The notes below the pieces were generated by a model that was given only the letters and a program-made list of their open reading frames with translations, ran no database searches and had not been told where the DNA came from. Below, in pieces: positions 9,604 to 43,388 of a DNA stretch of 64,000 bases. The stretch comes from Anabaena cylindrica PCC 7122. GTDB taxonomy: Bacteria; Cyanobacteriota; Cyanobacteriia; Cyanobacteriales; Nostocaceae. Every line of letters starts with the position of its first letter. Position 1 is the first letter of the stretch. The stretch lies in assembly GCF_000317695.1 (NCBI RefSeq), contig NC_019771.1:2463823-2527822 (forward strand), in the 5' to 3' direction. The position numbers and the translations under genes are program-made.

Positions 9604-9677
9604 GCCCCTGTGGCGCAATTGGCAGACGTAGCCCGCTTAAACCGGGTTTGTTGCAGGTTCGACTCCTGTCAGGGGTA
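9604..9677 (+). tRNA. tRNA-like, anticodon UAA (Leu codon) in class I body
   Basis: Acceptor GCCCCTG/CAGGGGT. Anticodon stem-loop CCCG-CTTAAAC-CGGG. T-arm GCAGG-TTCGACT-CCTGT. Confidence 0.45.
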
Positions 9678-9751: not shown

Positions 9752-9783
9752 CCATATACAGACTGTCCTCGCTGTCTGCTTTT

Positions 9784-10280: not shown

Positions 10281-10850
10281 ATGTTGATAGGCTATGCCCG
10301 AATTTCAACAGATGACCAAAATCTGAACCTGCAAATGGATGCTTTACAGCTTGCTGGTTGCGAGAAAATTTACTCCGACCGCACAAGCGGTGCAAAAGCA
10401 GAACGACCTGGACTTTCCTTAGCATTGGAAGTAGCACGGACTGGTGATGTTCTGGTGGTATGGCGGCTAGACCGCTTAGGAAGATCGCTCAAAGATTTGA
10501 TTGAAATGATGGAAACCTTAGATAAGCGAGGAATTGGGCTTTCTAGCTTGCAAGAATCCATCACCACCACGAATAACAGTGGTAGATTAATTTTCCATTT
10601 GTTTGGTGCATTGGCTGAATTTGAGCGTAACCTCATCCGTGAACGCACTACGGCTGGACTTGTAGCGGCACGAGGGCGTGGTCATAGAGGAGGTAGACCA
10701 AAAGCCCTAGATCCAACTAAACGTCAATTAGCAGTAAGACTTTATACCGAAAAACAATACACAATTATTGAAATATGTAATTTGATGGGAATTTCCAAAC
10801 CAACGCTCTACAACTATATTGCAGAGATAAAAACTGAACATGGTACATAA
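10281..10850 (+). CDS. tniR: serine recombinase (resolvase/invertase family)
   Basis: MLIGYARISTDDQNLNLQMDAL...GDVLVVWRLDRLGRSL, followed by a C-terminal HTH (ISKPTLYNYI). It has the typical length of ~190 aa. Confidence 0.85.
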   Translation: MLIGYARISTDDQNLNLQMDALQLAGCEKIYSDRTSGAKAERPGLSLALEVARTGDVLVVWRLDRLGRSLKDLIEMMETLDKRGIGLSSLQESITTTNNSGRLIFHLFGALAEFERNLIRERTTAGLVAARGRGHRGGRPKALDPTKRQLAVRLYTEKQYTIIEICNLMGISKPTLYNYIAEIKTEHGT

Positions 10851-13489: not shown

Positions 13490-13662
13490 GTATTTATAGT
13501 TGCAATTAATCCTGGTTGAAACGGATGATTGCAGGTTGGTTGCATTTAATCCTGGTTCAGTTGCAATTAATTCTGGCTCAACCGTATTTATAGTTGCATT
13601 TAATCCTGGTTTGAAAATCCCTTGATTGCAGGTTTGACTGATTAGTATTGCAGGTCGCTACA
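13490..13662. repeat. transposon right end (IR-R)
   Basis: Reverse complement of 9868-10036. It ends ...GGTCGCTACA. Confidence 0.75.
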
Positions 13663-14962: not shown

Positions 14963-15205
14963 TGAAACCCTTGCTGTGTAAGGTTATGGTGGATGATGGT
15001 GGGTTGAGCCTATCTTTTACAGTCGTAGGGAAAATATATTTTGGATATATCTTTTCCCAAATAAAAACCCACCGCCAAATTAATGACGATGGTTATATAT
15101 CCAAGGAAGCTTTCAAGGACTCAAGTAATTTAATTCGGTCGTGCAACTGGTTAACTCTAGCTTCAGAGTTAGTCAGTTCTTCCTTTGACTCTAGAATCAG
15201 TTGCT

Positions 15206-15839: not shown

Positions 15840-16115
15840 TCTATCTATACCGTTTCAGCGTTTCAGAAAAGACCTTATTTCATTTCAGGAAATTTCATTT
15901 TTATGGAGGCAAGAATCCTGAACCGAGAAATAAACGCTGAACCGATTACACCACAATGCTTTGACCATGATTTAGTCCGGTTCAGGAGGTTAATACATCA
16001 AAAATAGACATTTTCTAGACAATTTAGAGAAAGCTGAACCGTATGAACCGAGAGTTTTTTACCCAAAACTATTATCAGTTCATTGGTTCAGCGGTTCAGA
16101 GGTAAGTTCAACCAG
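15840..16115. repeat. array of at least 8 dispersed GAACCG/CGGTTC motifs (iteron/centromere-like)
   Basis: accgtttcagcgtttcag; ctgaaccgagaaataaacgctgaaccgatt; gtccggttcagg; gctgaaccgtatgaaccgagag; ttggttcagcggttcagagg; gttcaaccagttcaaa. Confidence 0.4.
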
Positions 16116-28368: not shown

Positions 28369-28944
28369 ATGTCAATAATGACCATTAAAGATGTAGAACA
28401 AGTTCAAACCGCTTTTAGTGAAGCAGGTTTAGATTACGATGTTGAATTAACAAACGGGAGAATTTCTATTGTGGGTCCTTCGGATATTGTATCTAGTGAA
28501 ATTAGTAGTCGTTTAATTGCTTTCCTCTTCGCTTGGGTAAACCCGCGTCGTTTAGGAAGAGTATTTGATTCTGCTGGTGGTTTTATTTTACCTGATAGCA
28601 ATCTCACCGCACCAGATGTTTCTTTTGTTCGGGCTGCACGTCTGCGTCAAAGTCCCCGTTATTTTGGGGAACTTGTACCAGATTTAGTAGTAGAAATTAA
28701 ATCTCAAAGTGATAGAATTAAACCTTTAGTTACTAAAATTCTCAACTTTATCACATTAGGTGCTGTGATTGGAATTTTAATTGATCCTGATGAGGAAACT
28801 GTTACAGTTTATCGTCATCAAGGTGAACCAACTATTTTAAATAATGGTGATATTTTAACTTTACCTGAACTTTTTCCCGGTTGGGAATTAGCTGTTTCTG
28901 AATTGTGGCCTCCTATTTTTACTGAAGAAGAAACTCAAGGTTAG
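28369..28944 (+). CDS. Uma2-family (DUF820) putative endonuclease
   Basis: VPDLVVEIKSQSDRIKPLVTKILNFITLGAVIGILIDPDEETVTVYRH. Confidence 0.65.
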   Translation: MSIMTIKDVEQVQTAFSEAGLDYDVELTNGRISIVGPSDIVSSEISSRLIAFLFAWVNPRRLGRVFDSAGGFILPDSNLTAPDVSFVRAARLRQSPRYFGELVPDLVVEIKSQSDRIKPLVTKILNFITLGAVIGILIDPDEETVTVYRHQGEPTILNNGDILTLPELFPGWELAVSELWPPIFTEEETQG

Positions 28945-29049
28945 TTTGTTTGATTGGATTAGTTTTTTTGTGGAGTTCTTTCATGAGAAATAGGGAATTT
29001 GTCCTGAAGATAACGGTGTGCGGAGGTTTCTCCGCACTAATCCTTAATT

Positions 29050-29565
29050 TTATTCGTGGATAGTAACTTTGATCATTTTAACTGGAGTTTTGGGGCGATC
29101 GCCTTGTCCCGTTGGAGTGGTTTCAATCGCTTTTAATACATCCATCCCTTCAGTAACTCGACCAAAAACAGGATGCTTGGATTGACCGGGTGTAAACCAA
29201 TCTAAATAGGAGTTGTGGCCAGTGTTGATGAAAAACTGGCAACTGCCACTATTAGGGGCTCCTGTATTAGCCATAGATAGAGTTCCTGGTTCGTTGGAAA
29301 TTTTCCCATCTTCAGGATGCTCATCTTGAATGCAACCATCAGGACCATTACCTGTTCCCGCACGAGGAGAGCTAGGATCTTTACTGTGAGGACAACCAAA
29401 CTGCACCATGAAGTTATTAATCACCCGGTGGAAATGCAGACCATCATAAAAGCCACTTTTAGCCAATTTGATGAAATTTCCAGCCGTTATGGGCATAACA
29501 TCGGTGAATAGCTCAAGAGTAATAGTACCAAGGGACGTTTCAAGGGTTGCGGTGGGATTTGTCAT
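29050..29565 (-). CDS. peptidyl-prolyl cis-trans isomerase, cyclophilin type
   Basis: [20 protein letters not shown]...[26 protein letters not shown]...[18 protein letters not shown]. Confidence 0.85.
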
Positions 29566-29720
29566 GAATATTAAATTACTAATCTGTGCAATGGGTTATT
29601 TTGTCGCTTCTAGTTTACCCAAAATCTTGAACATAATGTTAACTAAAATCCACAACTTTTCAAACTAATAATTTCTACTTGTGATAAAGAAACTCAAGAT
29701 TAGGTTATTTTCTCGGCATT

Positions 29721-30299
29721 TCAATCAGGGAAAGCTAAACCGGTACTCGGATCTCTAATATATAATCCCAGTGTCAAACTCCGCATCACTTCATCCCACA
29801 CAGGTATTAATTGCTCTGCTTGATCTGCCCAATAATCAAAAGTAATTAAACATTGAATATTAGAACCTAAACCAACACAAGTCCGAGAAAAAGCTTCCCT
29901 TGGTTCGGCTTGAGTATCAATAAATTTAATTTCACACCACATAATTCTAGCAGTTTGTCGCTTAACGGTAATCACTTCTCCTCTTTCAATCACATCACGG
30001 CTATCATCTTCCATGATTTTCTTCAAAGTTGATTTGAGGGGAAATAGAGTCCAGTCATTCGGTGGTAGGTGATTGTAGGATAATTCTAAACAACAATCAT
30101 CCTTGGGTGGTTTTTTATCCATGAACTTGAATGATTTTTCCTGTGGCTCAAACACCCAATTTTGAGGAACATTGAAGCGAACTGCTCCCCTCCCGGCTAC
30201 AAAAATCTTATAACCATCAGGCCCTTCCCAGTGATGATCCGGTTTTAAGTCTAGGGTTTCTTTAATCCATTGGAGATTGCTTTTCTTACGCTTGCCCAT
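29721..30299 (-). CDS. hypothetical protein
   Basis: 192-aa ORF with no recognised motif. Confidence 0.45.
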   Translation of the reverse strand: MGKRKKSNLQWIKETLDLKPDHHWEGPDGYKIFVAGRGAVRFNVPQNWVFEPQEKSFKFMDKKPPKDDCCLELSYNHLPPNDWTLFPLKSTLKKIMEDDSRDVIERGEVITVKRQTARIMWCEIKFIDTQAEPREAFSRTCVGLGSNIQCLITFDYWADQAEQLIPVWDEVMRSLTLGLYIRDPSTGLAFPD

Positions 30300-30344
30300 A
30301 ATTAAAATAAGCTCCTAAATTTTAGTTTACAGTTCCAACTATTG

Positions 30345-30509
30345 GTGATAAATTACAGAATTTGCAAAATTTGCTTTTATTCTTCAGTTTCAAATCTAAC
30401 ACCTTCATATAGTAGTTCAATCGGAAATTCAAATTCAATATTTGAAAAAGTGATGATGTCTCCAGTAGTTTAGGGATAGTAAAGCCACATTCTTTCTTCT
30501 CCTCGACAG
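30345..30509 (-). pseudogene. Uma2-family endonuclease 3' fragment
   Basis: ~85% nucleotide identity to the 3' end of the intact Uma2 gene at 51434-51600 (...ttcttcagtttcaaatc.aac.ccttcata...ccagtagt.ta.ggatagtaaagccacattc). It ends at the IS left inverted repeat. Confidence 0.5.
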
Positions 30510-31237
30510 TCAGGGTTAGCGCATCTCAAACCCTATTGACAAGGGGATTTATTTGATATGTGGGAGGATGTTCAAGTGAAACAACTCAAGGTAAGTTAAT
30601 ACATAACCCATCTAGTCAATGTATCTAAGCAATGTCAACAGGATTTAAGAAGAAGTGCAAAACCAGAACATCTGTTAAACCCAGTGTAGACAGTAAAGAG
30701 ATTACCAGTAACTTTCTCCAACACTTTACGGAAATAAAAGACCCTAGAGCAGAAAGGACTCGACTGCATCTACTCACCGATATTATCACTATTTCCTTGT
30801 TGGCAGTCATAGCAGGCGCAGAGGGTTGGGAAGATATTGAGGAATATGGACTAAGTAAAAAAGACTGGTTAGAGACATTTTTAAAACTACCAGAAGGAAT
30901 ACCCAGTCCAGATACATTCAGAAGAGTATTTGAGAGAATAAACCCCAAAGAATTTGAGCAATGTTTTCGGAATTGGGTGCAATCATTAGTGGAGAAATTA
31001 GGTGTAGAAGTAGTTGCTATAGATGGTAAAACTCATCGAGGCTCATATGACCGAGAATCGAAACTAAAAGCCTTACATACAGTCAGCGCATGGGAAGAGT
31101 GAAAATAGGTTGATTCTAGGACAAACAAAGGTCAGTTGTAAATCAAATGAAATCACGGCAATTCCAGCACTATTAGAGACTCTGGTCTCCTCTACTGTAA
31201 TTCCCCTGTCAATAGGGTTTGAGATGCGCTAACCCTG
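30510..31237. mobile_element. ISAs1-family insertion sequence remnant (internally deleted) with ~38-bp terminal inverted repeats
   Basis: IR-L CAGGGTTAGCGCATCTCAAACCCTATTGACAAGGGGA (30510-30550) matches the reverse complement of 31199-31237. The enclosed ORF is only the N-terminal 156 aa of an ISAs1/H-repeat transposase. No clear target-site duplication was found. Confidence 0.6.
30632..31102 (+). pseudogene. ISAs1-family transposase, N-terminal fragment
   Basis: IKDPRAERTRLHLLTDIITISLLAVIAGAEGWEDIEEYGLSKKDWLETFLKLPEGIPSPDTFRRVFERINPKEFEQCFRNWV is the family N-terminal signature. It is truncated at 156 aa. Confidence 0.65.
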
Positions 31238-32773
31238 CTGCGGATTCATGCGAATTAAATCCGTCAAAATACTATCCAAACTACCATTAACTTGAATCCG
31301 ATCAATCTTCTCAGCAATACGTTCTAAAACCTCCAATTCTTTCAAACGCAATGCAACAGGATTATCTTCCATTACTTTGGCAGTATTCAACATACTCCGA
31401 GTAGCAGCAGTTTCTTCTCTGCGTCTGACAACATTAGCTTGTGCAGCTTTTTCAGCTTCCACAACCTTACTCAAAATCGCCTTAATTTCCCCAGGTAAAA
31501 TAATATCTTTTACCCCTACAGAATCTACTTCAATTCCATAAGCTGCGGCTTTTTGGCGAATATATTCAGAGATACTTCTATCAATTGCTCCTTTATCTTC
31601 CAATAAAGTATCTAAAGTTCGTTCACCAACTGCACCACGCAAGGCAAATTGCAATTCTTTGTACAAAAATCCAGTAATATCTGATAACGCATTTTTGGCT
31701 TTTAATATGTCTTGAATGCGGAAACCAGCAGTCAAATTTAACCGCAGAGGTACTTTATCTTTAGAGAGGATTTCTTGACCAGAAATTTCCATGTTTTGCA
31801 ATCGTAGGTCAATGGTTTCCGTTTGCCAAGAACGTCCAAATGACCACCAAGCATTTAATCCTGGTTGTAATTGTGTTTGAAATTCCTGATTAATATATAA
31901 TAGTCCAATATGTTGAGGAGGAACTTGACAAATATGTAAATAGTTCCGACTCAGTGTTTTTACTTCTGCTGTTCCTTCGACCAATTCAGAAATTAATGCA
32001 GGTGGTAATTTGGCATTATTGCTAATATCAATAATTTCTACTTCCACACCTTGCCAAAATAATTTACGGCTTGTGGGTGGTAAAATAGAAATTACTTTCC
32101 CCCTATATCGGACAATTGCGACTTGTGAAGGCAATAATTCCACGATTTCACAGTAAGCAGCAACAAAATTTGGATGTTTTTCAATGAGGATATCTTCCAG
32201 GGGAAAATCTGGGTTAGGGACGATCCGGCTGATATTCCGCACTGCTACAGTCTTATCTATTGACCAAAAAGCATATTCTCCTGGTTCTAAAGGTCGGACA
32301 AAATTATTTTGAAGATATAGTAAACCAATCTCAGATTCAAAGATTTGGAATTTCTTCAGTCCATTTAGCGAAAATGAGCGTAATTGTTGGACAAAGTAAT
32401 TAGGTAATTCCCAATTTTCTTCTAAGTTAAAAAGATGAGATTCTACTTCTATGAAACCACGCCAAAAAGCTCGTAATTGATTAGGGGCAACACTTATCCA
32501 ATTCTGACCCAGACGAACTAAAGCAGCTTCGTTGAATGCGGTTCTCACAATCAAGAGATATTTTTGCAGTTCTGTACCATGATTTCGCAATAATAATTCT
32601 AGGTTTTCGATTTCTGCTTCTGGTTCGTTGAGGTCATGAGTTCTAATTTGCCAATGACGACCAAAATAAGTATATGTACCAGGCTGCAAAACTTTCTTAA
32701 AGTCGCTGCGGTGATATAAAATGCCAATTTCATTAGGTTTGATGTAAAATGTTTTCCACATAGTAATTTGCAT
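31229..32773 (-). CDS. SPFH/band-7 domain protein with four N-terminal ~100-aa repeats
   Basis: The C-terminus (GEIKAILSKVVEAEKAAQANVVRRREETAATRSML...ALRLKELEVLERIAEK) is typical of SPFH/stomatin-like proteins. The N-terminal repeats are GILYHRSDFKKVLQPGTYTYFG / GLLYLQNNFVRPLEPGEYAFWS / VAIVRYRGKVISILPPTSRKLFWQ / GLLYINQEFQTQLQPGLNAWWS. The stop codon lies in the IS inverted repeat. Confidence 0.55.
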   Translation of the reverse strand: MQITMWKTFYIKPNEIGILYHRSDFKKVLQPGTYTYFGRHWQIRTHDLNEPEAEIENLELLLRNHGTELQKYLLIVRTAFNEAALVRLGQNWISVAPNQLRAFWRGFIEVESHLFNLEENWELPNYFVQQLRSFSLNGLKKFQIFESEIGLLYLQNNFVRPLEPGEYAFWSIDKTVAVRNISRIVPNPDFPLEDILIEKHPNFVAAYCEIVELLPSQVAIVRYRGKVISILPPTSRKLFWQGVEVEIIDISNNAKLPPALISELVEGTAEVKTLSRNYLHICQVPPQHIGLLYINQEFQTQLQPGLNAWWSFGRSWQTETIDLRLQNMEISGQEILSKDKVPLRLNLTAGFRIQDILKAKNALSDITGFLYKELQFALRGAVGERTLDTLLEDKGAIDRSISEYIRQKAAAYGIEVDSVGVKDIILPGEIKAILSKVVEAEKAAQANVVRRREETAATRSMLNTAKVMEDNPVALRLKELEVLERIAEKIDRIQVNGSLDSILTDLIRMNPQQG

Positions 32774-33104
32774 ATTTGGGCGATAAATGATTTATTGTAT
32801 TTACTTGTAATTACATGCTACATAACATTTTTTACTCTGTCAATACAAGTGTTCACAGTTTATGTGTGGGCAAAAACTTCGCCAAAACTGGATTAAGAAG
32901 AATGTAACTTTTTCCTAGCTGCTCCGTAGCAACCCAGAGCAAGAAAACATCCTGCAAATATGCCGTTCGATTGTCCTTATGGAAACCGAAGGGACAAACT
33001 CAAGTTAGGGAGAAAAGCAGTTGCGCTTACTCATTAACTGTAGCCATTAAGCATCACCCTTGCGAGTAATAACCAACAGCAGAACACTTGCACCGCAGAG
33101 TTAA

Positions 33105-33190
33105 TGAAGATAACACGGATTTGAACCGTAGGATTTCTCCTTTACCACTTGCTACTTCCCAAAAGTAGTGTCCTTTAACCCGGACAGGGT
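33105..33190 (-). tRNA. tRNA-like sequence (T-arm TACGG-TTCAAAT-CCGTG present; acceptor could not be paired)
   Basis: The minus-strand GGTTCAAATCC T-loop and an anticodon-like hairpin CTACT-TTTGGGA-AGTAG are present. No 7-bp acceptor complement was found, so this may be a pseudogene or a mis-parse. Confidence 0.25.
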
Positions 33191-33192
33191 TG

Positions 33193-33266
33193 GTTGAAAG
33201 TACAGGATTTGAACCTGTTACAGATCGATTAAAAGTCGATTGCTCTACCAAATGAGCTAACTTCCG
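33193..33266 (-). tRNA. tRNA-Lys(UUU)-like
   Basis: Minus strand: D-arm TAGCTCATTTGGTAGAGCA. Anticodon stem-loop ATCGA-CTTTTAA-TCGAT. T-arm ACAGG-TTCAAAT-CCTGT. The acceptor pairs over 6 bp. Confidence 0.5.
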
Positions 33267-33268
33267 GG

Positions 33269-33341
33269 GGTTTGATACAGGATTTGAACCTGCGACGGGT
33301 TGATTATAAGTCAACTGCTCTACCAACTGAGCTAATCAAAC
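33269..33341 (-). tRNA. tRNA-Ile(UAU)-like
   Basis: Minus strand: acceptor GTTTGAT/ATCAAAC. D-arm TAGCTCAGTTGGTAGAGCA. Anticodon stem-loop GTTGA-CTTATAA-TCAAC. T-arm GCAGG-TTCAAAT-CCTGT. Confidence 0.55.
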
Positions 33342-33551
33342 GATAGAATAGGTTGGAGGACTCAGCGGTATACGCTCATACTAGAGTTTGGCGCACCAGT
33401 TAGGTATACAGAACCTAAACTATAGCTTTGTAACTTTACTGCTATCCCACTTCAAATGTAGCATATTGTAATTTGCTATGAATTTTTTTTTAATTCTTGC
33501 CAGAATCTGAGGGTTAAACTAAACTAAGTTTGTAGACTTAGCTAAAAACCT

Positions 33552-33797
33552 ATGGAAACTGTAAATATCCATCAAGCTAAAACGAATCTCTCACGTCTAT
33601 TATCCCGTGTAGAACATGGGGAAGAGATTATTATTTCTAACCGGGGTGTTCCCGTCGCTAAGTTAGTTCCGTTTAGTGTTTCGTCTCACCGCAGAGATAG
33701 TTTAGGACAAGATCGAGGAAAATTTGTAATTCCAGAAGACTTTAATGCACCTTTACCAGAGGACATTTTGGCAGCGTTTGAGGCTAATGAGGAGTGA
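33552..33797 (+). CDS. type II antitoxin (Phd/YefM-like)
   Basis: 81 aa, ...NIHQAKTNLSRLLSRVEHGEEIIISNRGVPVAKLVP. Its stop overlaps the start of the downstream PIN gene. Confidence 0.7.
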   Translation: METVNIHQAKTNLSRLLSRVEHGEEIIISNRGVPVAKLVPFSVSSHRRDSLGQDRGKFVIPEDFNAPLPEDILAAFEANEE

Positions 33798-34198
33798 AAC
33801 TTTTACTGGATACACAGTGTTTTTTATGGTGGTTTGCTGAACCTGAGCGTTTGCATGAAGAAGCGATCGCACATATTGCTGATGAAAGCAATGAACTATG
33901 GCTTTCTGTAGCTAGTGTGTGGGAAATGGGGATAAAAGTTGCAATTGGTAAGTTACCATTACCAGAACCACTGGATAGTTACATTTCTAGCCGCATGATG
34001 AAATTGGGGGCGAAATCTTTGGAAATTACAGCTTCTCATGCACTCAGAACGGTGGCTTTACCGTTGCATCATCGAGATCCTTTCGACAGAATGCTCATTG
34101 CACAAGCACAGATGGAAAGTATGACGCTTGTGACTGCGGATTCAATGCTTAAAGAGTATCAAGATACTGCTATTCTTTGGGCTGGGAATAAAGGTTAG
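33794..34198 (+). CDS. vapC: PIN-domain toxin VapC
   Basis: MKLLLDTQCFLWW...SVASVWEMGIK...ADSML has the PIN acidic residues. It is 4-nt overlapped with the antitoxin gene. Confidence 0.75.
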   Translation: MKLLLDTQCFLWWFAEPERLHEEAIAHIADESNELWLSVASVWEMGIKVAIGKLPLPEPLDSYISSRMMKLGAKSLEITASHALRTVALPLHHRDPFDRMLIAQAQMESMTLVTADSMLKEYQDTAILWAGNKG

Positions 34199-34261
34199 TT
34201 TGGGAAGTGCGGCTACAATGAATGCTTACCGAAGCGATCGCACTCAACTCTATAATATTCC

Positions 34262-35426
34262 TCATTCAGATAAAATAATTGTAGCTAATCGTTCCTCAAC
34301 TTCTTGAATATAATCTGTTAAACCTGTATCAACTCCTCTTTCTCGTAGATGTTTTAAATTTGTATCTTCCCAACACTGCTTTTCCCGTTCCATATCGTTT
34401 CCTGTTAGCTGTTCAACTACTACTTTTACATTTCTCATTCGTTCAGGTTCTTTCTCAGAAGTAGCACGTAATCTGTGCGACTCTATGCAAGGATGAAAAC
34501 TCAATTTATTTTTGATTTCTTCAAGAATTTGTTCCTCTTCTTGATTAGATGCAATAAACCCATTTAAAACCCATGCTTCACGTTTTGGATCAGCCGCACC
34601 AATGACAATTTCTAATTTAGGTATTCCATTAATATGTTTTAAACGTGCTTGCTCAATTCCTTCTTTACGTTCCGGTTGATTATCTAAATCACGGATAAAA
34701 ATAACAGCTTTAATATGTCGTCTTTTTTGTAAAAAACGTACCAAATTAAGAACTTTAATAGATGCTGCACCATCAGCTTCTAAAGATACACCCTTACTAT
34801 AATGACCTAAATATCTGGGTTCCTTATATTTTAGTTGTTTTTTTGCATCGACTCAGCTTTTCTTCTATGAATTGAAATTTATCTGGAGCTTCGTCACGAA
34901 GAGAATCTAAAGTAGGTGCTAATCCTGAACCGTCAAATTCAACTCTTGGCGTAATTTCTTCACTGTAAGCTGGTTTAGCGAGATTGGAAGCTATTAATTT
35001 TAAATAAATAGTGTTTTTTAAAGATTGAGGAATTTTGGATATATCTCTAAAACGTGGATCTTGATCCCAATCATATTGATGTCCATCTATACTTAATATT
35101 ATGATGGAATTGTGATTATAAATTTTCTCTTCTTCAATACTGTAGAAAAATTTCCACTTTCTCTTAATATTATCTTGCCAATAACCACTCGCAGTTATAG
35201 ACATCCTTTTTTCACCCATTGTTGTAATAAATTGATGTAGATTTTCATGTTTAAATATTTGTGTAGAGGATGAATAAGTAAGCATACTTAAACTATACAA
35301 AGCTTGTAAAACCGTTGTTTTACCAGCACTGTTTTTTCCTACAATTCCATGTAATCGGGAGTTATCGAAATTGAGTTCTGTAGATTTATGGCTTTTGAAA
35401 TTATGAAGTATTAGTTTTTCTAGCAT
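34262..35426 (-). pseudogene. AAA_21/OLD-family-like ATPase, split by a frameshift at a T7/A7 homopolymer (ORFs 34824-35426 and 34262-34852)
   Basis: The N-terminal ORF has the OLD/AAA_21-type start MLEKLILHNFKSHKSTELNFDNSRLHGIVGKNSAGKTTVLQAL. The downstream ORF stays open in frame up to 34852 without a start codon, overlaps by ~29 nt in another frame, and carries a Walker-B-like hhhhD block (HIKAVIFIRDLDNQ) plus ...PKREAWVLNG. The combined length of ~388 aa matches the family. Alternatively the downstream part is a separate DUF4276-like partner. Confidence 0.5.
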
Positions 35427-35438
35427 ATTTTTTATAAA

Positions 35439-35663
35439 TCACAATAATTCAGGAATATATTTATTTTCATAGTTTTCAATTAATGCACCAATTACTTCCA
35501 TAAGAGATGCGAGAGGATGAGTTTCATCTTCACCAACTCGATCAATAAGAGAATCAAGTATATTAACCAAGTATTCATATTCCTCTTCTGTGTGAGGAAC
35601 AAAAACATTTTTGGCAATAGATGACCAAGCGGTGATAGTTTGATTGATGTTTAAACTTTGCAT
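35439..35663 (-). CDS. HigA-like (COG5499) N-terminal domain protein, truncated (no HTH)
   Basis: TEEEYEYLVNILDSLIDRVGEDETHPLASLMEVIGALIENYENKYIPE matches the N-terminal module of HigA-type antitoxins. Confidence 0.4.
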   Translation of the reverse strand: MQSLNINQTITAWSSIAKNVFVPHTEEEYEYLVNILDSLIDRVGEDETHPLASLMEVIGALIENYENKYIPELL

Positions 35664-36082
35664 TATTCTTTTTTTGAATGTACCTCAAAAGCCAAATCTG
35701 CACGGTAAAAACACACATCAAACTCTAAAAAGAAGTTCATACGCCCTAATAATAAAGGTACATCATCAGATAAGCACCACGCAAAAACTAAGCGAACAGG
35801 CTCAAATGATCCAATCTGGGCAGATACCAGTAAACCTCTTGCCTCTACTGGTGCTAAATTGCCAGCTAATATCACAGAAGTAGTCTGTTCTTCCCAAATT
35901 GCACCTAGCTGAATACCTACAGTGTATGGGAGAACGTTAACACTTGCGCCAGTATCCAATAAACCGGAAACATCTACCGATGAGTTACGATAAGTAAGTG
36001 TTAATGGTAACTTTGGTAGAGCATCAGGAACACCAAAGGTATCATATCCCTCTGTAAAGGCAAATCTTTGAGTTTTAGCCAT
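35663..36082 (-). CDS. retropepsin-like aspartic protease
   Basis: LLDTGASVNVLP has the D-T/S-G-A active-site motif, in a 139-aa single-domain context. Confidence 0.7.
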   Translation of the reverse strand: MAKTQRFAFTEGYDTFGVPDALPKLPLTLTYRNSSVDVSGLLDTGASVNVLPYTVGIQLGAIWEEQTTSVILAGNLAPVEARGLLVSAQIGSFEPVRLVFAWCLSDDVPLLLGRMNFFLEFDVCFYRADLAFEVHSKKE

Positions 36083-36299
36083 TGTGCTTTTGATCGTCCG
36101 CTTCTAGTAGTTGAGCAAGTTGATGTGCGGCTGCATGGGAATTAAGCGGGGATAAAATAGAATAGGTTGCTCCCTGTTCTAATGATGGTTCTTCATCCCT
36201 AGATAATTCGGAGACTAGAAACTGCATTACTTTTAGTTTGTCTGCACGATTTAGATTTCGCAGGGTAGGAAATAGTTCTATGGCGTTCATAATTGTCAT
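36075..36299 (-). CDS. hypothetical small protein (upstream partner of retropepsin gene, 8-nt overlap)
   Basis: 74-aa ORF translationally coupled to the protease gene. Confidence 0.4.
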   Translation of the reverse strand: MTIMNAIELFPTLRNLNRADKLKVMQFLVSELSRDEEPSLEQGATYSILSPLNSHAAAHQLAQLLEADDQKHNG

Positions 36300-36413
36300 A
36301 GTAGAGGGAATTTCATATTTCTATTTTTCCACAAGTTTCATGATTGTGCGATCGCTCTTTGGGATTTGAAAAGGTGCGATCGCAATTTGCGATAATGCAC
36401 CCTAAATGACAGT

Positions 36414-37685
36414 TTACTCAGTAAGCAAACTTAGTCCAAATATCCAGGCAGGTGGGTTATTACTGGTATAGTCACCTCTAAAGATACCTGTGATGGGAGA
36501 TTCGACGGGTCCAAACACAACTTTCCATGTTTTGTTTAAACGAGGTGAGAATACTTTTATAATATGAAGATTACAGGACATAGGTATGTCCATATAGGCA
36601 TCATAGCCATTAAATTTTTCGGGATAGACACGGAGAAGATATGTTTCTTGAGTGACTTTTTGACCATCAATAGTTTCAAGTTCAATTTCCTCATACCAAT
36701 AGTCTCGTTCTTGAGGATGATGAGTTGCAGAATTGAAAAGCCTATTTTCCTCCATACGAATTTCTTCTACTACATCTTCATCTGCACCATATAAATCTAG
36801 TAAGCGCGAGAAGGATATAATATGAAATGAACATCCCTCTGTTTCTCGCCTAAATTCATCTACAAGTTCATATCTCGGATATAAAGCTTTTTTCTCGGAT
36901 CTATAAAACCAATCATGCTTCTCTTCGCCTGAAACAAAGATAACGTGGCTTTTATTCGATTTTCCAATTTCTAATATCGTCAGCCAGATTAGAAGATCAC
37001 CAATTCCTAAGTCTGGCTTACCTCCATCCTTATAACCCGGTGGATTTTTATGCAATATGAGGTTTTTCAAATCTTCTTTGACTTTATTTTGATCAATTTC
37101 TGGCTCTATAATTACACTTTTATTAAAAATTTCAGCGTAAATTAAACTAACTGGATCATTCCAAGTCCACCCACTAATATGATCTATTACAGAGCTAATA
37201 GCTTTCGTGTATTTTTTAATAAGTTCATTAATTTCTTTTTCAATCTCAAGAGTTTCTTTATATGCTTCTAATGACTCAAGAAGTGGGTACTTTCCTATAT
37301 CAAATTTATGTTGTGATGAATTCTTTCGAGTTAATTGTTGGTAAACTTCTGCTATCTTAGTAGGTCTATTCTTAACAAATTCTCTAGCAGCTTGCGCTGG
37401 TATTATTAGACGATTATTTTGTACTAACTCTCTGTATATCTTTTGAATCTGATTAAGGCTATTTGTGCCTGTCGTATATGGAACAAGTAAAGTATTTGTA
37501 TCGAGGACAATAATTGCATTATCTTTGATATCTTCAACTGGCTTGAGTACATTAGCGAATAATGAGGTTGCATCAGGAAAAATCCGATTAGCAATAAAAA
37601 TATCAACTTCACTTTGTTCTGATTTACCTTGATTTGGTGACATAATTTTAAACTCCAATTTACATAATTTTTTAGATGAACACAA
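36414..37685 (-). CDS. PIN-like domain protein with large C-terminal extension
   Basis: NAIIVLDTNTLLVPYTTGTNSL (N-terminal PIN acidic core) and ...KPDLGIGDLLIWLTILEIGKSNKSHVIFVSGEEKHDW. 423 aa. Confidence 0.5.
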   Translation of the reverse strand: MCSSKKLCKLEFKIMSPNQGKSEQSEVDIFIANRIFPDATSLFANVLKPVEDIKDNAIIVLDTNTLLVPYTTGTNSLNQIQKIYRELVQNNRLIIPAQAAREFVKNRPTKIAEVYQQLTRKNSSQHKFDIGKYPLLESLEAYKETLEIEKEINELIKKYTKAISSVIDHISGWTWNDPVSLIYAEIFNKSVIIEPEIDQNKVKEDLKNLILHKNPPGYKDGGKPDLGIGDLLIWLTILEIGKSNKSHVIFVSGEEKHDWFYRSEKKALYPRYELVDEFRRETEGCSFHIISFSRLLDLYGADEDVVEEIRMEENRLFNSATHHPQERDYWYEEIELETIDGQKVTQETYLLRVYPEKFNGYDAYMDIPMSCNLHIIKVFSPRLNKTWKVVFGPVESPITGIFRGDYTSNNPPAWIFGLSLLTE

Positions 37686-37877
37686 AGTACATAGTGATGT
37701 TATCTAGAATAGACTAATCTTTTACATAGGAAGCATTATTTAGAAACATGATTTTAGCTTTTTGCTCATCCATTTGTAGCAATAAGTGTCTTAAATCATG
37801 TAAGGCATTTTCTATGAAAGGAATAACAAAGCTATCATCATTAAATGGTTCAATTTCATCCTCAGCTTGAGAAATTG

Positions 37878-39311
37878 GGTTCTTCGGTAGTTGTTATGCC
37901 AAACTATTAGCTACACTCACTAAATAATATTAAAAAATGTATCAATAAATGACTAAAGGTATTGTAGGGGTTGACATACAAAGAGCATTTATTATTAACT
38001 ATAAATGCAATCCAAATTATTTTTAGATAAACTTAAAGTTATGACTGGCAAAAAAGGTATTAAAATTCTAACAGAAATTCTGGATTTAAGCGGTGTAAAA
38101 GTTGTATCACATCGCCTTCATACCGGAATTGGAATGATTTTACAAATTGAACAAGAAAATTCATTTGCTACCTGCCCATATTGTGGCACAACCAGCCATA
38201 AATTACATCAAAATCATAGACATATTATTAAAGACCTCCCTTTTGGAGAAAAAGAAATATTTTTAGAAATTAATCGCCGACAGTTTAAATGTGAACAATG
38301 TAAAAAACCATTTAGTGAAGATTTAGATTTTGTTAAAAAGAAAAGAACTTTTACAAATCGCCTTGCAAATAAGACAATACAAGAAGTTTTAGAAAACGAC
38401 ATTCATAGTGTAGCAGCAAAAGGTATAGTAACAAAAGACGAAATAGAAAGAATGTTAAAAGACGCATCATCAGAATTACCAGATTTAAAACCTATAAATC
38501 TAAAAAGACTGGGAATTGATGAAATAGCTTTGAAGAAAGGACATGGGAATTACTGTGCAGTATTAGTAGATTTAGATCAGAGCAAACTAATTGCGATTTT
38601 AAGCGGACGAACACAAGAAATAATCAGGAAAACCCTTATGGGATGGGGGACAGAGATTCTAGAAAATATAGAAGAAGTCAGTATAGATTTGTGGAGTGGC
38701 TATAAAACTTTAGTAACAGAATTAATGCCAAATGCTCAAGTAGTAGCTGATAGATTTCATGTAATGACACAGATTAACAAAGAATTAGATACACAAAGAA
38801 AAAGGGAAAAACGGAAAGTTGAAGATTTAATCAAGAAAGCAAATACAACAGAAAAATCTAAATATGAAGAAATATTAGCTGGATTGAAGAATAGTAAATA
38901 TCCCTTACTTAAAAATGAAGATAAGTTAACCCAAGAGCAATTAGAGAAACTGATTCAAGTTAAAAATGTCTCGCCTATTTTGAAGGAAATGCACGAATTT
39001 AAAGAAAAGATTAGGCAAATTTTTAATACTACACAAGATTGGTATACGGGAGTTTTCAAATTAGGTATGTGGTTATCGAGAGCTAAAAAATACTTCCCAA
39101 ATAGCAACAATACTATTATTCGTTGGTATCAGGAAATTATAGCCTACTTTGATAATAGGACAACCAGTGGTACTGTGGAAGGAATTAATAACAAGCTTAA
39201 ACTAATAAAACGTTCGGGATATGGATTTAAAAACTTTGAAAATTTCCGAATTAGATGCTTATTAAGTTGGCATTATGTTTAATAGTTTAGCATAAAAAGT
39301 ACCGAAGAGCC
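37878..39311 (+). mobile_element. ISL3-family insertion sequence (1434 bp) with 8-bp target-site duplication AGAAATTG
   Basis: IR-L GGTTCTTCGGTAGTTGTTATGCCAAACTATTA pairs with the reverse complement of IR-R GGCTCTTCGGTACTTTTTATGCTAAACTATTA. The direct repeats agaaattg lie at 37870-37877 and 39312-39319. Confidence 0.85.
38005..39282 (+). CDS. ISL3-family transposase
   Basis: 425 aa. Zinc finger CPYCG...CEQCKKPF. DDE region GIDEIALKKGHGNYCAVLVDLDQSKLIAIL...VSIDLWSGY...FHVM. Confidence 0.85.
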   Translation: MQSKLFLDKLKVMTGKKGIKILTEILDLSGVKVVSHRLHTGIGMILQIEQENSFATCPYCGTTSHKLHQNHRHIIKDLPFGEKEIFLEINRRQFKCEQCKKPFSEDLDFVKKKRTFTNRLANKTIQEVLENDIHSVAAKGIVTKDEIERMLKDASSELPDLKPINLKRLGIDEIALKKGHGNYCAVLVDLDQSKLIAILSGRTQEIIRKTLMGWGTEILENIEEVSIDLWSGYKTLVTELMPNAQVVADRFHVMTQINKELDTQRKREKRKVEDLIKKANTTEKSKYEEILAGLKNSKYPLLKNEDKLTQEQLEKLIQVKNVSPILKEMHEFKEKIRQIFNTTQDWYTGVFKLGMWLSRAKKYFPNSNNTIIRWYQEIIAYFDNRTTSGTVEGINNKLKLIKRSGYGFKNFENFRIRCLLSWHYV

Positions 39312-39911
39312 AGAAATTGTAACTTCCATTCTTTCATGTATTTCTTTGATATCGTTAATAACATCTATGTTATAGAGATTCCAAGAAAAAATCTTGTATT
39401 TATTGCTTTTATAGACATCATTACTCCATTTTGAAGCAATACTTTTATAGAATTTTGAGTTAAATTCTTTCTCAGTCATTGATTTCAGTATTCTATAAGT
39501 TTTAACAAAAGACACTAGAGAATCATAGTTGCTATAAAGTTCTCCCCAAATTGCCGATTTAATTTCATACTCCTTGTTTTTTTCTTTGAACAAATCAACT
39601 GATTCTTTAACAATTAAAGATATTAAAGTTGCCGGAGGCAGTAAATATACAAGATGATCTAAATCATGTAGGTAATTTATTCCAAGCGGTAAAGAAATAA
39701 GAGATAGACTTATAATTGATAACTTCAAATTCTCATTTTTTTCAGTATGAGCAATAATATCTTTAATATAGCCCTGCCTCCAATTAAGCCAAATAATAAG
39801 GAACATAAAACCAATCAACAAATTTTCCATAATATTTTCTTTCATAAAATGTGGGAGCATAAGTTGTGGAATGCAGATATCTGTCAACTTTAAACAAATG
39901 AAGTATATCAC
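39312..39911 (-). pseudogene. membrane protein gene disrupted by the ISL3 insertion (remaining 3' part at ~37722-37877)
   Basis: The ORF 39279-39911 takes its last ~11 codons from the IS. The in-frame continuation ISQAEDEIEPFNDDSFVIPFIENALHDLRHLLLQMDEQKAKIMFLNNASYVKD* lies on the other side of the IS. Confidence 0.5.
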
Positions 39912-39945
39912 CTTTTACACAAATGATATTATTGATTAACAAAAA

Positions 39946-41250
39946 TTAACTCCTTTTATAAACCACTTCCATTCTCAACTTCTCCATCTCAATCTTCAAC
40001 CGTTCATTCTCCATTTTCAACCCTGTATTTTCATCCTTAATCAACTCCACCTCATTCCGTTTACTCAAAGCCTGATTAATTGCCAACTTCCGCATATCTA
40101 AAGAGAACCAACGTTGATATGTTTTCGTATGAATCTGCACACTATGACCCAAATTATCCGCCGCAGCTTTAATAGGAATCCCCAAAATATGCGCTCGAAT
40201 TGCCCAACCATGACGTAAATCATAAGGTTTAAAATCTAAACCTATTTTTCTAAACCACCAACTCACTCTTTGAATTAAAGCCGTGATTTCTGCATGATTA
40301 TTTTTATCTTTTTTACTAATTGCTATTGCCAACATTTCTAAATACTTCGGATTTCTTAAATCAAATTCATCAATCCATTCTTTATATAAAGGCAAAGCTT
40401 CTCTTTCACCAGTTTTACAATCTTTATCAACTTTCCATGTTAAATCTATATTTTCATCACTTAACCACCAAGCAATATGAGGATTAATAAAAAGCTCACG
40501 GGGACGTAAACCAAAAACCGCTAACATTCCATAAATCCAGCGCCATAATTGCCAGCTATCTTTCACATCTTGATTAACTTGCTTACCTCTGTTATTTAGA
40601 TATTCATCAAACTTGTAGAATCCTGTAACTATTTCCTGATCTGTGGGAACATTCCGAGAATTACTCTCAGGCATTTTGGAATACTTAGATAAATCAATTT
40701 CAATTTTAAAGGTCTGACAAAAAGCAGAAATAGCTCTAGCGGCATTATATTTTGCCCATTCTTTATCTAGTTTTTCAAGTGAAGCAATCAAATTTTCCGC
40801 AGTTGCTAAATATTGAGGATTAGTGTAGCGTTTTGTTCGGGAAAAATAATAGAAAAAAGTATGCTCGCTTTTAGTAGTGCGTTGATGGGTTTTAAAATAT
40901 TCCTCTTCAAACTGTTCGAGTAATTCTCCTATAGTTGTTAAATCCTTTTTAATGGACTCATTTCCTAAATATTTATCAGTCCAGGTAAATGTTTTTCTAG
41001 CAATTAATTTTCCTAATTCATAAGCTTCCTCTTCTGCTGTTTTTAGTCCATCCAAGTTTGCGGGAATATTCAGAGTGATATTGTATTGTTTTCTTCCCGT
41101 TTTCCTTGTGTCCTGATCTCCCGGTTTAATTGGTAACGTTGCCCGTAATTGCAGAGATCCATTTGATTCTCGAATTGTTACTCTCGTCTTCGCAGACTTC
41201 AAACGCAGATTTACTTGTTCTAATTCCAGTAGAATTTTTTCTTTCATCAT
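39946..41250 (-). CDS. xisA: site-specific tyrosine recombinase XisA (nifD-element excisase)
   Basis: 434 aa. C-terminal catalytic region RPRELF...YDLRHGWAIRAHILGIPIKAAADNLGHSVQIHTKTYQRW has the R...HxxR...Y arrangement. Position and orientation match xisA of the Anabaena nifD element. Confidence 0.85.
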   Translation of the reverse strand: MMKEKILLELEQVNLRLKSAKTRVTIRESNGSLQLRATLPIKPGDQDTRKTGRKQYNITLNIPANLDGLKTAEEEAYELGKLIARKTFTWTDKYLGNESIKKDLTTIGELLEQFEEEYFKTHQRTTKSEHTFFYYFSRTKRYTNPQYLATAENLIASLEKLDKEWAKYNAARAISAFCQTFKIEIDLSKYSKMPESNSRNVPTDQEIVTGFYKFDEYLNNRGKQVNQDVKDSWQLWRWIYGMLAVFGLRPRELFINPHIAWWLSDENIDLTWKVDKDCKTGEREALPLYKEWIDEFDLRNPKYLEMLAIAISKKDKNNHAEITALIQRVSWWFRKIGLDFKPYDLRHGWAIRAHILGIPIKAAADNLGHSVQIHTKTYQRWFSLDMRKLAINQALSKRNEVELIKDENTGLKMENERLKIEMEKLRMEVVYKRS

Positions 41251-41480
41251 CCTTGGTGTTGCAGATTAAGAATATAGATTTATTGCACGCAGAGACGCAG
41301 AGTCACAGAGAGTAAGAGTTGAGAATTTTCTCGTTCCCAATCCAATCAGAGTTTGGGAACGAGAGGTTGGTATTAGCCTATATTTAGACTAAAAATAAAT
41401 GTGTTATCTGCATACATTGTTTATCGCTGACATTGCTCACTGCAAACATAGCGAAGTCAAAAGCTATTAAACCATTAGAA

Positions 41481-41491
41481 GAACTACTCCG
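41481..41491. repeat. XisA-type recombination site, right copy (GAACTACTCCG; 9/11 identical to left copy)
   Basis: The core TACTCCG is shared. The flanking codons continue NifD (GPYHGYDGF). Confidence 0.75.
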
Positions 41492-41631
41492 GTCCTTATC
41501 ACGGTTACGACGGATTCGCAATCTTTGCTCGTGACATGGATTTGGCGCTAAACAGCCCAACCTGGGGATTAATCGGCGCTCCCTGGAACAAGAAAGCTCA
41601 AGCTAAAGCTAAGGCTAAAGCTTCCGTCTAG
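41492..41631 (+). CDS. nifD: NifD 3' segment (C-terminal 46 codons)
   Basis: (S)[46 protein letters not shown] is the canonical NifD C-terminus. Confidence 0.85.
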
Positions 41632-41699
41632 AAACACCAGAGAGTAGGGGCAACCCTGCCCGTACAGGGATAGCCTGGGGTGAACACCCCAGGGGGGAG

Positions 41700-41768
41700 T
41701 TGGAAATTCAAAATTCAAAATTAAAAATTCAAAGTTTCGGATTTTGGATTTTGCATTCTGAATTTTGA
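41700..41768. repeat. heptamer-repeat hairpin ((AAATTCA)n / (GATTTTG)n inverted) downstream of nifD
   Basis: ggaaattcaaaattcaaaattaaaaattcaaagtttcggattttggattttgcattctgaattttgag. A similar structure sits after hesB (50108-50160). Confidence 0.55.
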
Positions 41769-41852
41769 GCCACATTCCCGACTTCCCCCAAAGGTGGAGA
41801 AACCCCGCCCCAAAAGCAAAAACAACACACAGCAAGCTTGGAGATACACAAA

Positions 41853-43388
41853 ATGCCTCAGAATCCAGAAAATATTAAGGATCACGTTGAGTTATTCCAC
41901 CAGCCAGAATACCAACAACTGTTTGAAAACAAGAGACAGTTTGAAAACGGTCACGACCCCGCAGAAGTAACACGAGTTGCAGAATGGACAAAAAGCTGGG
42001 AATATCGTGAAAAGAACTTTGAACGTACAGCTTTAACAGTTAACCCAGCGAAGGGTTGTCAACCTTTAGGAGCAATGTTTGCTGCTGTAGGTTTTGAAGG
42101 TACTCTTCCCTTCGTTCAAGGTTCTCAAGGTTGCGTAGCTTACTTCCGTACCCACTTAACCCGTCACTACAAAGAACCATTCTCCGGCGTTTCTTCTTCC
42201 ATGACAGAAGACGCTGCTGTGTTCGGTGGTCTGCAAAACATGATTGACGGCTTGGCTAACTCATACAGCCTTTACAAGCCCAAAATGATTGCTGTCTGCA
42301 CCACCTGTATGGCAGAAGTTATCGGTGATGACTTACAGTCATTCATTGGTAACGCGAAGGAAGCTGGTTCAGTTCCTCAAGATTTCCCAGTACCTTTTGC
42401 TCACACACCTAGTTTCGTTGGTTCCCACATCACTGGTTACGACAACATGATGAAGGGAATTCTTTCTACCTTGACCGAAGGTAAGAAGAAAGCCAAGAGC
42501 AATGGTAAAATCAACTTTATCCCAGGTTTTGACACCTACGTAGAAAACAACCGCGAAATCAAGCGGATGGCTAACTTGATGGGTATTGACTACACTGTTT
42601 TATCTGATAACAGTGACTATGTTGATTCACCCAACACTGGTGAATTCGATATGTACCCAGGTGGTACTAAGCTGGAAGATGCAGCAGATTCTATCAACGC
42701 CAAGGCTACTGTTGCTCTGCAGGCTTACTCTACCACTAAAACCCGTGAGTACATTGCTAAGGAATGGAAGCAAGACGTTTGTGTTTCTCGTCCTTGGGGT
42801 ATCAAGGGAACTGATGAGTTCTTGATGAAACTCAGCGAATTGACTGGCAAGGCTATTCCTGAAGAGTTGGAAATTGAACGTGGTCGTGCTGTTGACGCAA
42901 TGACCGATTCCCACTCTTGGTTGCATGGTAAGCGCTTCGCTATCTACGGTGATCCTGACTTAGTTTACAGCGTAGTTGGTTTCATGTTGGAAATGGGTGC
43001 TGAACCTGTACATATCTTGGTTCACAACACCAACGAAGTATTTGAGAAAGAACTGCAAGCATTGTTAGATTCTAGCGTCTTCGGTAAGGGTGCTAAAATC
43101 TGGGGTGGTAAGGACTTGTGGCACATGAGATCACTCTTGTTCACAGAACCCGTAGATTTGTTAATTGGTAATTCCTACGGTAAGTACCTGTGGCGTGATT
43201 GTAAGGTTCCCTTGGTAAGAATTGGTTATCCTATTATGGATCGTCACCACTACCACCGTTACGCTACTGTTGGTTATAAAGGTATTATCAACCTCCTCAA
43301 CTGGATTGTTAACACAATCTTTGAAGATATCGACCAACATACCAATATTCCTTCTAAGACAGATATTTCCTACGACTTGATTCGTTAG
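41853..43388 (+). CDS. nifK: nitrogenase MoFe protein beta chain NifK
   Basis: [39 protein letters not shown]...[32 protein letters not shown]. It is full length, about 511 aa from this Met. Confidence 0.95.

Follow-up and report, generated by a model that had tools for sequence, protein, structure and literature searches.

A conserved composite RNA unit containing two tRNA genes precedes a slipin gene on the 3′ nifD element of Anabaena cylindrica

The cyanobacterium Anabaena cylindrica PCC 7122 carries two tandem tRNA genes inside an element that interrupts nifD, and we analysed them within a 64,000-nucleotide (nt) stretch of its genome (contig NC_019771.1, positions 2,463,823 to 2,527,822), hereafter the window. 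ARAGORN found 18 tRNA genes in the window: 16 form an array on the plus strand (7283–9861) and two lie on the minus strand inside the 3′ nifD element, tRNA-Lys(ttt) at 33191–33266 and tRNA-Ile(tat) at 33267–33341. A first-pass annotation, made from the letters alone, had proposed these two genes together with a third, aberrant one; the two are real, being called by ARAGORN and matched by Rfam RF00005 at 63.9 bits (Lys) and 69.0 bits (Ile), against a gathering score of 29. We found that they form part of an RNA unit of approximately 650 nt, which consists of a structured leader of approximately 130 nt, the two tRNAs, an acceptor-less tRNA-like element and a 280-nt structured RNA, with a 510-amino-acid SPFH/slipin gene next in line. 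The first-pass annotation had not seen this larger conserved cassette of RNA plus slipin.

Module 1, tRNA-Ile(UAU) (33269–33341), has a closed 1–72 pair, a 7-bp acceptor stem (GUUUGAU/AUCAAAC), a canonical anticodon loop and the discriminator C, followed by CC. Module 2, tRNA-Lys(UUU) (33191–33266), likewise has a canonical loop, with a C1–A72 mismatch, A73 and an encoded CCA. The two are 85% identical across 60 nt, indicating a tandem duplication. In the third element (33106–33186, minus strand), UGUCC-GGGUUAAA-GGACA forms a D-like hairpin, CUACU-UUUGGGA-AGUAG an anticodon-like one and UACGG-UUCAAAU-CCGUG a T-like arm; its variable arm is long. Direct reading of the minus strand revealed no acceptor stem in it, ARAGORN made no call and Rfam gave no match even at E ≤ 10; ‘aberrant’ is thus a fair description, because the tRNA-like arms are there without an acceptor stem. 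The stems of this element covary: in other loci GUCC/GGAC is replaced by GCCC/GGGC, and CUACU/AGUAG by CUACC/GGUAG or CCUUG/CAAGG. The modules abut or overlap by one base.

In alignments of homologous loci, conservation begins abruptly about 130 nt upstream of the first tRNA and ends about 50 nt before the start codon of the SPFH gene. The leader (33345–33473, minus strand; nhmmer profile, E = 3 × 10−38) has a closing helix of the AUAGC/ACUAU type and hairpins, one of them UAGGU-UCUGUAU-ACCUA. RNAalifold, run on 16 leader sequences, predicted 22 pairs, 5 of which show compensatory changes, and in one hairpin two pairs have 5–6 such changes. The 280-nt RNA (‘RNA270’; 32824–33103, minus strand; nhmmer, E = 2 × 10−81) folds as a rod closed by a conserved 14-bp long-range helix (ACUCUGCGGUGCAAG...CUUGUAUUGACAGAGU). 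For 13 distinct sequences of this RNA, RNAalifold predicted 74 pairs, 17 with compensatory changes compared with 5–9 in slid controls; 93.5% of cells were paired compared with approximately 40% in those controls, and none of 500 shuffles reached the observed values. No Rfam 15 family was found for the leader, the third element or the 280-nt RNA when the window, Chroococcidiopsis and Anabaena 7120 copies were searched at permissive thresholds. One helix of the 280-nt RNA (alignment A2, columns 93–97 with 252–256), UCUCC/GGAGA, resembles anti-Shine-Dalgarno/Shine-Dalgarno pairing; it adjoins two long conserved segments, CUAACUUGAGUAUGU, predicted to lie mostly in helix 6, and AUCUUAAUCCAGUUUUGGAG, predicted to be mostly unpaired.

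The adjacent slipin gene (31229–32773, minus strand) is a 514-amino-acid (aa) open reading frame (ORF) with a Pfam Band_7 match (E = 3.8 × 10−29) and a conserved start, MWKTF, at 32761. Its homologues number in the thousands; the best 120, found in Nostocales, Chroococcidiopsis, Oscillatoria, Gloeothece and other cyanobacteria, are 78–94% identical. In Anabaena sp. PCC 7120 its ortholog is alr0740 (78% identity). The ratio of non-synonymous to synonymous substitution rates (dN/dS) was 0.05–0.09 at a dS of 0.6–2.6, a comparison of two nifD-element copies included, which indicates strong purifying selection. The protein has three N-terminal repeats of the motif E.G(I/L)LY...L.PG...W, only the third of which leads into a full SPFH domain, and by eye no obvious membrane segment. 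PADLOC, NCBIfam and PHROGs returned nothing informative beyond SPFH.

The cassette recurs both on and off nifD elements. We fetched 80 loci encoding XisA relatives, 79 of which have nifK beside xisA. In nine of the 80, one or two tandem tRNAs lie 4–10 kb into the element; all nine are homologous to the window pair (76–98% identity over 160–246 nt), and a slipin homologue follows on the same strand in every locus long enough to show it. Profiles of the leader and the 280-nt RNA detected the unit at every sampled slipin locus. An exact pattern of the tRNA–tRNA junction occurred in 12 metagenome contigs, with the order as in the window, and had no match in viral contigs; in plasmid and phage collections, a BLAST search with the tRNA region met only generic tRNAs, none of them a cyanobacterial relative. 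On the chromosome of Anabaena sp. PCC 7120, the unit (approximately 860.56–861.15 kb of BA000019.2, in the stretch 4718–5957 of locus L095, approximately 860.56–861.80 kb) has a degenerate tRNA 1, truncated such that the acceptor strands are kept and the interior is lost, and a tRNA-Asn(GUU) as module 2 (64.5 bits), with alr0739 and the slipin gene alr0740 after the RNA. Elsewhere the two modules read Lys-UUU/Thr-UGU (Calothrix PCC 7507), Asp-GUC/Met-CAU (Chlorogloeopsis PCC 9212), Gln-UUG/Asn-GUU (Fortiea contorta) and Tyr-GUA/Ile-UAU (Chroococcidiopsis thermalis PCC 7203). We regard the window copy as a paralogous cassette that travels as cargo of the 3′ nifD element. Like the tRNA genes of phages and mobile elements, the window pair comprises extra, consensus-like tRNAs on an excisable, prophage-like element and has generic matches to phage tRNAs; by contrast, it belongs to a fixed multi-part RNA cassette that also occupies non-mobile chromosomal sites and in which anticodon identity is not conserved.

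How far this last point goes became clear when 19 distinct copies of one tRNA module and 23 of the other were aligned. Both have near-invariant acceptor, D and T arms, and most differences fall at anticodon positions 34–35, in the variable loop, at positions 1, 72 and 73 and in part of the D loop. CAU, UAU, UUU, GUU, UGU, GUA, GUC and UUG all occur as anticodons of homologous copies. Among nifD-element copies, ARAGORN read UAU/UUU in Anabaena sp. WFMT, UUU/UUU in A. azotica and CAU/CAU in Nostoc and Desmonostoc, whereas the Dolichospermum and Cylindrospermum copies have distorted loops or read as a UUA ‘suppressor’; the metagenome contigs added the pairs GUA/UAU, CAU/GUU, UAU/GUU, UAU/CAU and UAU/UAU. 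Nostocales loops follow the scheme CU-NN-U-AA, and deeper-branching copies are non-canonical (G33, C37), with Rfam scores down to approximately 44 bits. The discriminator base varies independently of the anticodon, and module 2 usually combines a mismatched 1–72 pair with an encoded CCA. The long variable arm that bacterial tRNA-Tyr requires is missing from copies with a ‘Tyr’ anticodon. In two Cylindrospermum copies, module 2 of NIES-4074 (L019, approximately 15860–15885) and module 1 of FACHB-282 (L022, approximately 14990–15015), the T loop bears a 24-nt insert, ATGCCTACGGCACGCT(A/C)CGCGAAC, which resembles the very small mobile repeats of Nostocales.

Near-invariant arms combined with a drifting anticodon and discriminator imply that the scaffold is selected and the decoding identity is not. 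The dS of 0.6–2.6 for the slipin gene means that the invariance of the arms reflects selection rather than recent common ancestry; strong purifying selection acts on all three arms, and positions 34–35 and the discriminator drift freely. Because anticodons change between species, ordinary decoding is unlikely to need the window tRNAs. The first-pass annotation had offered redundancy as one option, and this part of it fits: the tRNAs are very probably dispensable for normal decoding, as other anticodons stand at the same positions of the cassette elsewhere. It had also called tRNA-Ile(UAU) rare in bacteria, which it is; the UAU anticodon of the window gene is best read as a one-base variant of the CAU state in Nostoc copies. 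Cyanobacteria normally read AUA with a lysidine-modified CAU tRNA.

Sequences around the unit suggest a connection to the translational-stress response studied in Anabaena 7120. A consensus scan identified a promoter-like site, TTAAAA-17-TACAAT (9/12), at 33465–33493 on the minus strand, a putative promoter of the RNA unit. Directly after it stands ATGCTACATTTG, which resembles the trcR operator ATACTACACTTG and at which cross-species conservation starts. A second promoter-like site, TTGACA-17-TAGCAT (32815–32843, minus strand), may drive the slipin gene; its −10 box TAGCAT is overlapped by TGTAGCAT, a 7/8 match to the TrcR site TGTAGTAT, through which the gene could be regulated in the window organism. 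Exact copies of TGTAGTAT occupy the equivalent place in three other loci (L083, L091 and L097), and in PCC 7120 (L095) two exact copies lie between the 280-nt RNA and alr0739. In published work the TrcR site resembles TGTAGTAT and overlaps the −10 box; for a member of the regulon one would expect an operator of the form TGTAGTAT/ATACTACA over the −10 box or the transcription start site. In Anabaena 7120, TrcR binds the alr0739 promoter, deletion of trcR raises alr0739 by 72-fold and alr0740 by 42-fold, and chloramphenicol induces both genes, as it does the 26-gene trn L-array, the HNH gene all8564 and rtcB. This is the alr0739–alr0740 locus described above, with its own copy of the leader, a tRNA module and the 280-nt RNA immediately upstream. 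The window unit further resembles the TrcR regulon in a candidate TGTAGTAT-type site over a −10 box and in supernumerary tRNAs that would not be needed for standard growth. They differ in that the tRNAs of the window pair both come from a single paralogous family and are surrounded by other structured RNA; the TrcR papers do not mention the composite RNA, which TrcR may itself control.

A cyanobacterial L-array is a long series of different tRNA genes (up to 43) behind a repeat-bearing promoter. The pair on the 3′ element is nothing of the kind, having two tRNAs only that are 85% alike; the true L-array of the window is the plus-strand array at 7283–9861, preceded by three exact TGTAGTAT repeats (7155, 7177 and 7189; span 7155–7196). 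The idea that the pair is a copied L-array fragment was rejected, as alignment to the Lys–Leu part of this array showed no specific homology. Besides its 16 tRNA genes, the array holds a pseudo-tRNA seen by Rfam only (9445–9519, 31 bits), and HNH endonuclease ORFs lie at 6541–7077 and within it at 8169–9041. Homologous L-arrays occur on plasmids of Nostoc and Tolypothrix. Its last gene (9784–9861, 52 bits in Rfam) has an 8-nt anticodon loop, reported by ARAGORN as the 4-base anticodon ‘atgt’, and may be frameshift-suppressor-like or decaying. The array lies within a second, 5′ nifD-interrupting element, such that a whole stress-inducible tRNA operon is also carried on heterocyst-excised DNA.

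The 3′ element itself spans 26302–41491 (15,190 bp). TACTCCG direct repeats at 26295–26301 and 41485–41491 lie exactly 15,190 bp apart, and the nifD reading frame stops at 26301 (...HSWDYS) and picks up at 41492 (GPYHGYDGF...), leaving a middle nifD segment at 25842–26301 and a 3′ terminal segment, up to the stop codon, at 41492–41631, both on the plus strand. An xisA-type tyrosine recombinase gene with XisAC_N and XisAC_2nd domains occupies the nifK-proximal end (39946–41250, minus strand); its closest relative found is 95% identical. Beyond the element follow nifK (41838–43388), nifE and nifN, all on the plus strand; the nifD–nifK spacer contains short tandem AAATTCAAAATTCAAAATTAAAAATTCAAAG-type repeats (41690–41760). 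At the left junction stands GGATTACTCCG (26291–26301), which we take to be the core sequence of the Anabaena 7120 nifD element. With that xisA-bearing element the window element shares the insertion point HSWDYS/GPYHGYDGF, which for xisA-type elements lies near nifD codon 452 at position ~1355, this core and xisA at the nifK-proximal end; it is 15.2 kb rather than 11 kb long, its exact repeat in the window is only 7 bp, and it carries other cargo, including the RNA–slipin cassette. Repeats, nifD break and integrase together bear out the placement of the tRNAs inside a nifD element of the kind excised in heterocysts.

Left of 25841/25842 (...PW/LEYNFFGP), where nifD is interrupted a second time, the DNA belongs to the 5′ element, which runs past the left window edge. 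A preprint on Anabaena cylindrica ATCC 29414/PCC 7122 reports a nifD with a 74,986-bp 5′ element, which fits this DNA, and a 15,190-bp 3′ element, the identical length suggesting that the window matches that genome type. According to the same report, the 3′ element is lost from approximately 71% of heterocyst nifD copies and excision removes 172 genes, 15 of them tRNA genes. Excision of the 3′ element during heterocyst differentiation is thus reported for an A. cylindrica element of the same length.

Taken together, the make-up of the unit, its conservation and its constant association with slipin are firmly supported, whereas its mode of action is conjecture. The reading we lean towards treats the two tRNA genes and the third element as three tRNA-derived modules in a row, all belonging to one composite non-coding RNA that is conserved upstream of slipin, linked to stress and dispensable for decoding. 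The unit would be transcribed from its own promoter as one precursor, and RNase P and RNase Z would then cleave this precursor at both complete tRNAs. The third module could presumably not be excised and so would remain joined to the 280-nt RNA. The cassette would take part in a TrcR-type translational-stress response, like its Anabaena 7120 orthologues alr0739–alr0740, the L-array tRNA operon and rtcB. The released tRNAs would be supernumerary, serving as spare or decoy substrates in tRNA or translation damage or as mere processing punctuation. Candidate mechanisms thus range from processing punctuation to spare or decoy tRNAs in TrcR-type stress and, in some genomes, a retron-like template. 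If the tRNAs are not required isoacceptors, their loss with the element in heterocysts should not affect decoding. The first-pass annotation had raised the opposite prospect, that heterocysts depend on the excised circle; nothing indicates that these are sole isoacceptors, and a second tRNA-Lys(UUU) lies at 9528–9602. Since both tRNA-bearing loci on excised nifD elements look accessory, excision need not affect heterocyst decoding.

The proposed arrangement recalls YrlA, the Y RNA-like RNAs of rsr–rtcBA RNA-repair operons, in combining a stress-linked non-coding RNA, a tRNA-like module and co-regulation with RtcB, all of which may apply to the third element plus the 280-nt RNA. The likeness is a functional analogy only: the YrlA model (RF02553) matches weakly, over the true tRNAs, at 18.6–20.0 bits compared with a gathering score of 69, and no Ro/Rsr gene lies near the window unit.

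Several observations count against this interpretation. Both window tRNAs are fully canonical (64–69 bits, U33, A37), so that normal charging and a working role as isoacceptors are conceivable, and the check for other Lys(UUU) or AUA-decoding tRNAs covers the 64-kb window. Transcription and processing of the unit are predictions from sequence. Matches to TGTAGTAT with one mismatch are not rare in the window (51 found, 53 expected), and it is therefore the position of the sites, not their count, that carries the argument for TrcR. At the unit's own putative promoter, the operator-like sequence is a good match only in Anabaena copies, where it reads ATGCTACA, as at the start of the window unit; most other loci have GTGCTAAA. 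The published trcR-deletion transcriptome left long non-coding RNAs out of its analysis. Finally, some loci have a retron-type reverse transcriptase (RT), pointing to another primary role of the RNA.

This last feature was observed in eight loci, Chroococcidiopsis 7203 (L097) and seven metagenome loci (L082, L083, L086, L087, L088, L091 and L092), in which an RT of 347–350 aa stands beside the unit. These RTs match PADLOC RT_XIII at E values of 10−142 to 10−148 and have NAxxH, YADD and VTG motifs. L087 (1959–6090) shows the order 192-aa ORF, unit A, RT, unit B, slipin. Unit A has two CAU tRNAs and a 280-nt RNA that contains an extra hairpin and ends 6 nt before the RT start codon, and unit B has one tRNA and a 280-nt RNA without the hairpin. 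The conserved 192-aa ORF has no match in Pfam, NCBIfam, PADLOC or PHROGs and is unrelated to alr0739. Cassettes of nifD elements resemble unit A joined directly to slipin, suggesting that recombination between units A and B removed the RT along with unit B. Homologues of the RT occur widely among cyanobacteria, and RT and slipin share a contig in several genomes.

These loci invite the alternative that the cassette is an RT-less relic of a retron-like system: the composite RNA, especially its 280-nt part, would be the template or non-coding RNA of a type XIII-like RT, slipin would be the effector, and the nifD copies, their RT lost by recombination between flanking units, would either be inactive or rely on an RT encoded elsewhere. 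We consider this unlikely, although the eight loci, the shared contigs of RT and slipin, the position of the 280-nt RNA in L087 just before the RT, like msr–msd in retrons, with a second unit after it, and a closing helix and size of approximately 270 nt that fit Mx162-type non-coding RNAs all speak for it. However, tblastn with the Chroococcidiopsis RT found no match in the window or in any of the 80 nifD loci, and many genomes, Anabaena 7120 among them, maintain both RNA and slipin, under purifying selection, with no RT next to them. Nor did the Rfam msr model match the unit, and no branching-G context was recognized in the 280-nt RNA. Compared with type XIII retrons (Mx162/Mx65 clade; Mestre et al. 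2020), a subset of genomes does have a type XIII-best RT by the unit and a 280-nt RNA with a long terminal helix, in one locus directly before the RT; the known partners of type XIII are SWIM/winged-helix and HEAT/ARM proteins, not SPFH, tRNA modules do not occur in known retron RNAs, the RNA is widespread where no RT is found, and the window has none. Our literature searches, which also covered slipin together with tRNA, found no description of the RNA unit and, among the papers listed, none joining a retron with SPFH.

The remaining alternatives concern the tRNAs themselves. They could be ordinary mobile-element tRNAs that supply AUA and AAA decoding for AT-rich cargo, as the first-pass annotation suggested, and both are indeed canonical and high-scoring. 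The codon comparison it called for yielded a moderate enrichment, with AUA at 19.8 per 1,000 codons in ORFs of the 3′ element and 13.0 in host ORFs of the window, and AAA at 59.6 and 38.2. The helper function it had in mind is nevertheless improbable: homologous nifD-element cassettes have CAU/CAU, UUU/UUU or degenerate loops, loci outside mobile elements have yet other anticodons, the discriminator is unrelated to the anticodon, tRNA 2 has a 1–72 mismatch and the adjacent slipin gene contains only 4 AUA codons. We see an equally slim chance that the anticodon-variable scaffolds are decoys or sensors for tRNA-cleaving toxins (VapC/PIN, anticodon nucleases), with anticodons under diversifying selection. 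Such a role would suit the neighbours of the unit, a Phd–VapC pair, a PIN_8 protein and remnants of an AriA/OLD-like ATPase; CAU, UUU, GUU and GUA are classic targets of VapC, PrrC/PARIS, colicin E5 and retron-Eco7. It is also favoured by the Anabaena L-array paper, which proposes operonic tRNAs as sponges for toxin RNases and reports that, under translational stress, VapC is induced and tRNAs are cleaved. However, positions 34–35 vary about as much as the D loop, the variable loop and position 73, so relaxed constraint fits as well as positive selection; VapC is adjacent only in Anabaena/Dolichospermum copies, and deep-branching loops are non-canonical (G33, C37). Least credible, and already contradicted, is the proposal of a nested element integrated at the tRNA cluster, with the third piece a partial tRNA duplicate. 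tRNA genes are common integration sites, and transposase genes lie nearby at 30632–31102 and 38005–39282. Yet no second, attachment site-like copy of either tRNA 3′ end occurs in the window, even with 3 mismatches allowed in 18 or 25 nt, the only repeat being the tandem pair itself; both flanks are conserved along with the tRNAs as one unit, and the third element is a copy of neither tRNA and is conserved, with covariation, across orders.

The Phd/YefM antitoxin and VapC-type PIN toxin genes mentioned above (33552–34198, plus strand) diverge from the RNA unit beside its putative promoter. The pair also adjoins the unit in three other loci (L002, L014 and L016); it is no obligate partner, because it does not adjoin the unit in Nostoc loci. 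The cargo of the 3′ element (26770–39911) is rich in defence- and toxin–antitoxin-like genes. It further includes two Uma2 nucleases (PADLOC PDC-S03), a RusA-like ORF, a cyclophilin, ISL3 and DDE transposase genes, a frameshifted AAA_15/AriA-like ATPase (34824–36299) with a PDC-M52B-like ORF (35663–36082, E = 2 × 10−60), and the PIN_8 protein (36414–37685). Genes of the 5′ element in the window encode DUF3854 primase/helicase-like proteins (2668–5775 and 13658–14821), a resolvase (10281–10850), a collagen-repeat protein (22119–24662) and a cyanate lyase (966–1406).

Going further than the composite unit we favour, one may tentatively picture an as yet undescribed cyanobacterial RNA system. Its parts would be a stress-induced precursor with two excisable tRNA scaffolds, whose anticodons either may change freely or are driven to do so, a tRNA-like domain that lacks an acceptor stem and is joined to a new structured RNA of 280 nt, as a functional analogue of Y RNA or of tmRNA-type tRNA mimics, and slipin. 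The type XIII-like RT that joins it in some genomes would make it a new retron class with a tRNA-embedded non-coding RNA and an SPFH effector, and the nifD copy would be a mobile, RT-less version.

The analysis turns what had appeared as odd tRNAs on a mobile element into something concrete that can be put to the test, an RNA cassette of wide conservation which the model strain Anabaena PCC 7120 also carries, beside genes known for their response to translational stress. If our interpretation is right, the TrcR stress response would include an overlooked structured RNA and tRNA-like molecules. The maintenance of tRNA scaffolds by selection while their anticodons drift would be unusual and would bear on the origin of new isoacceptors, of decoys and of processing signals. 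A retron-type RT repeatedly paired with this RNA and an SPFH protein would, moreover, be a pairing outside current retron classifications.

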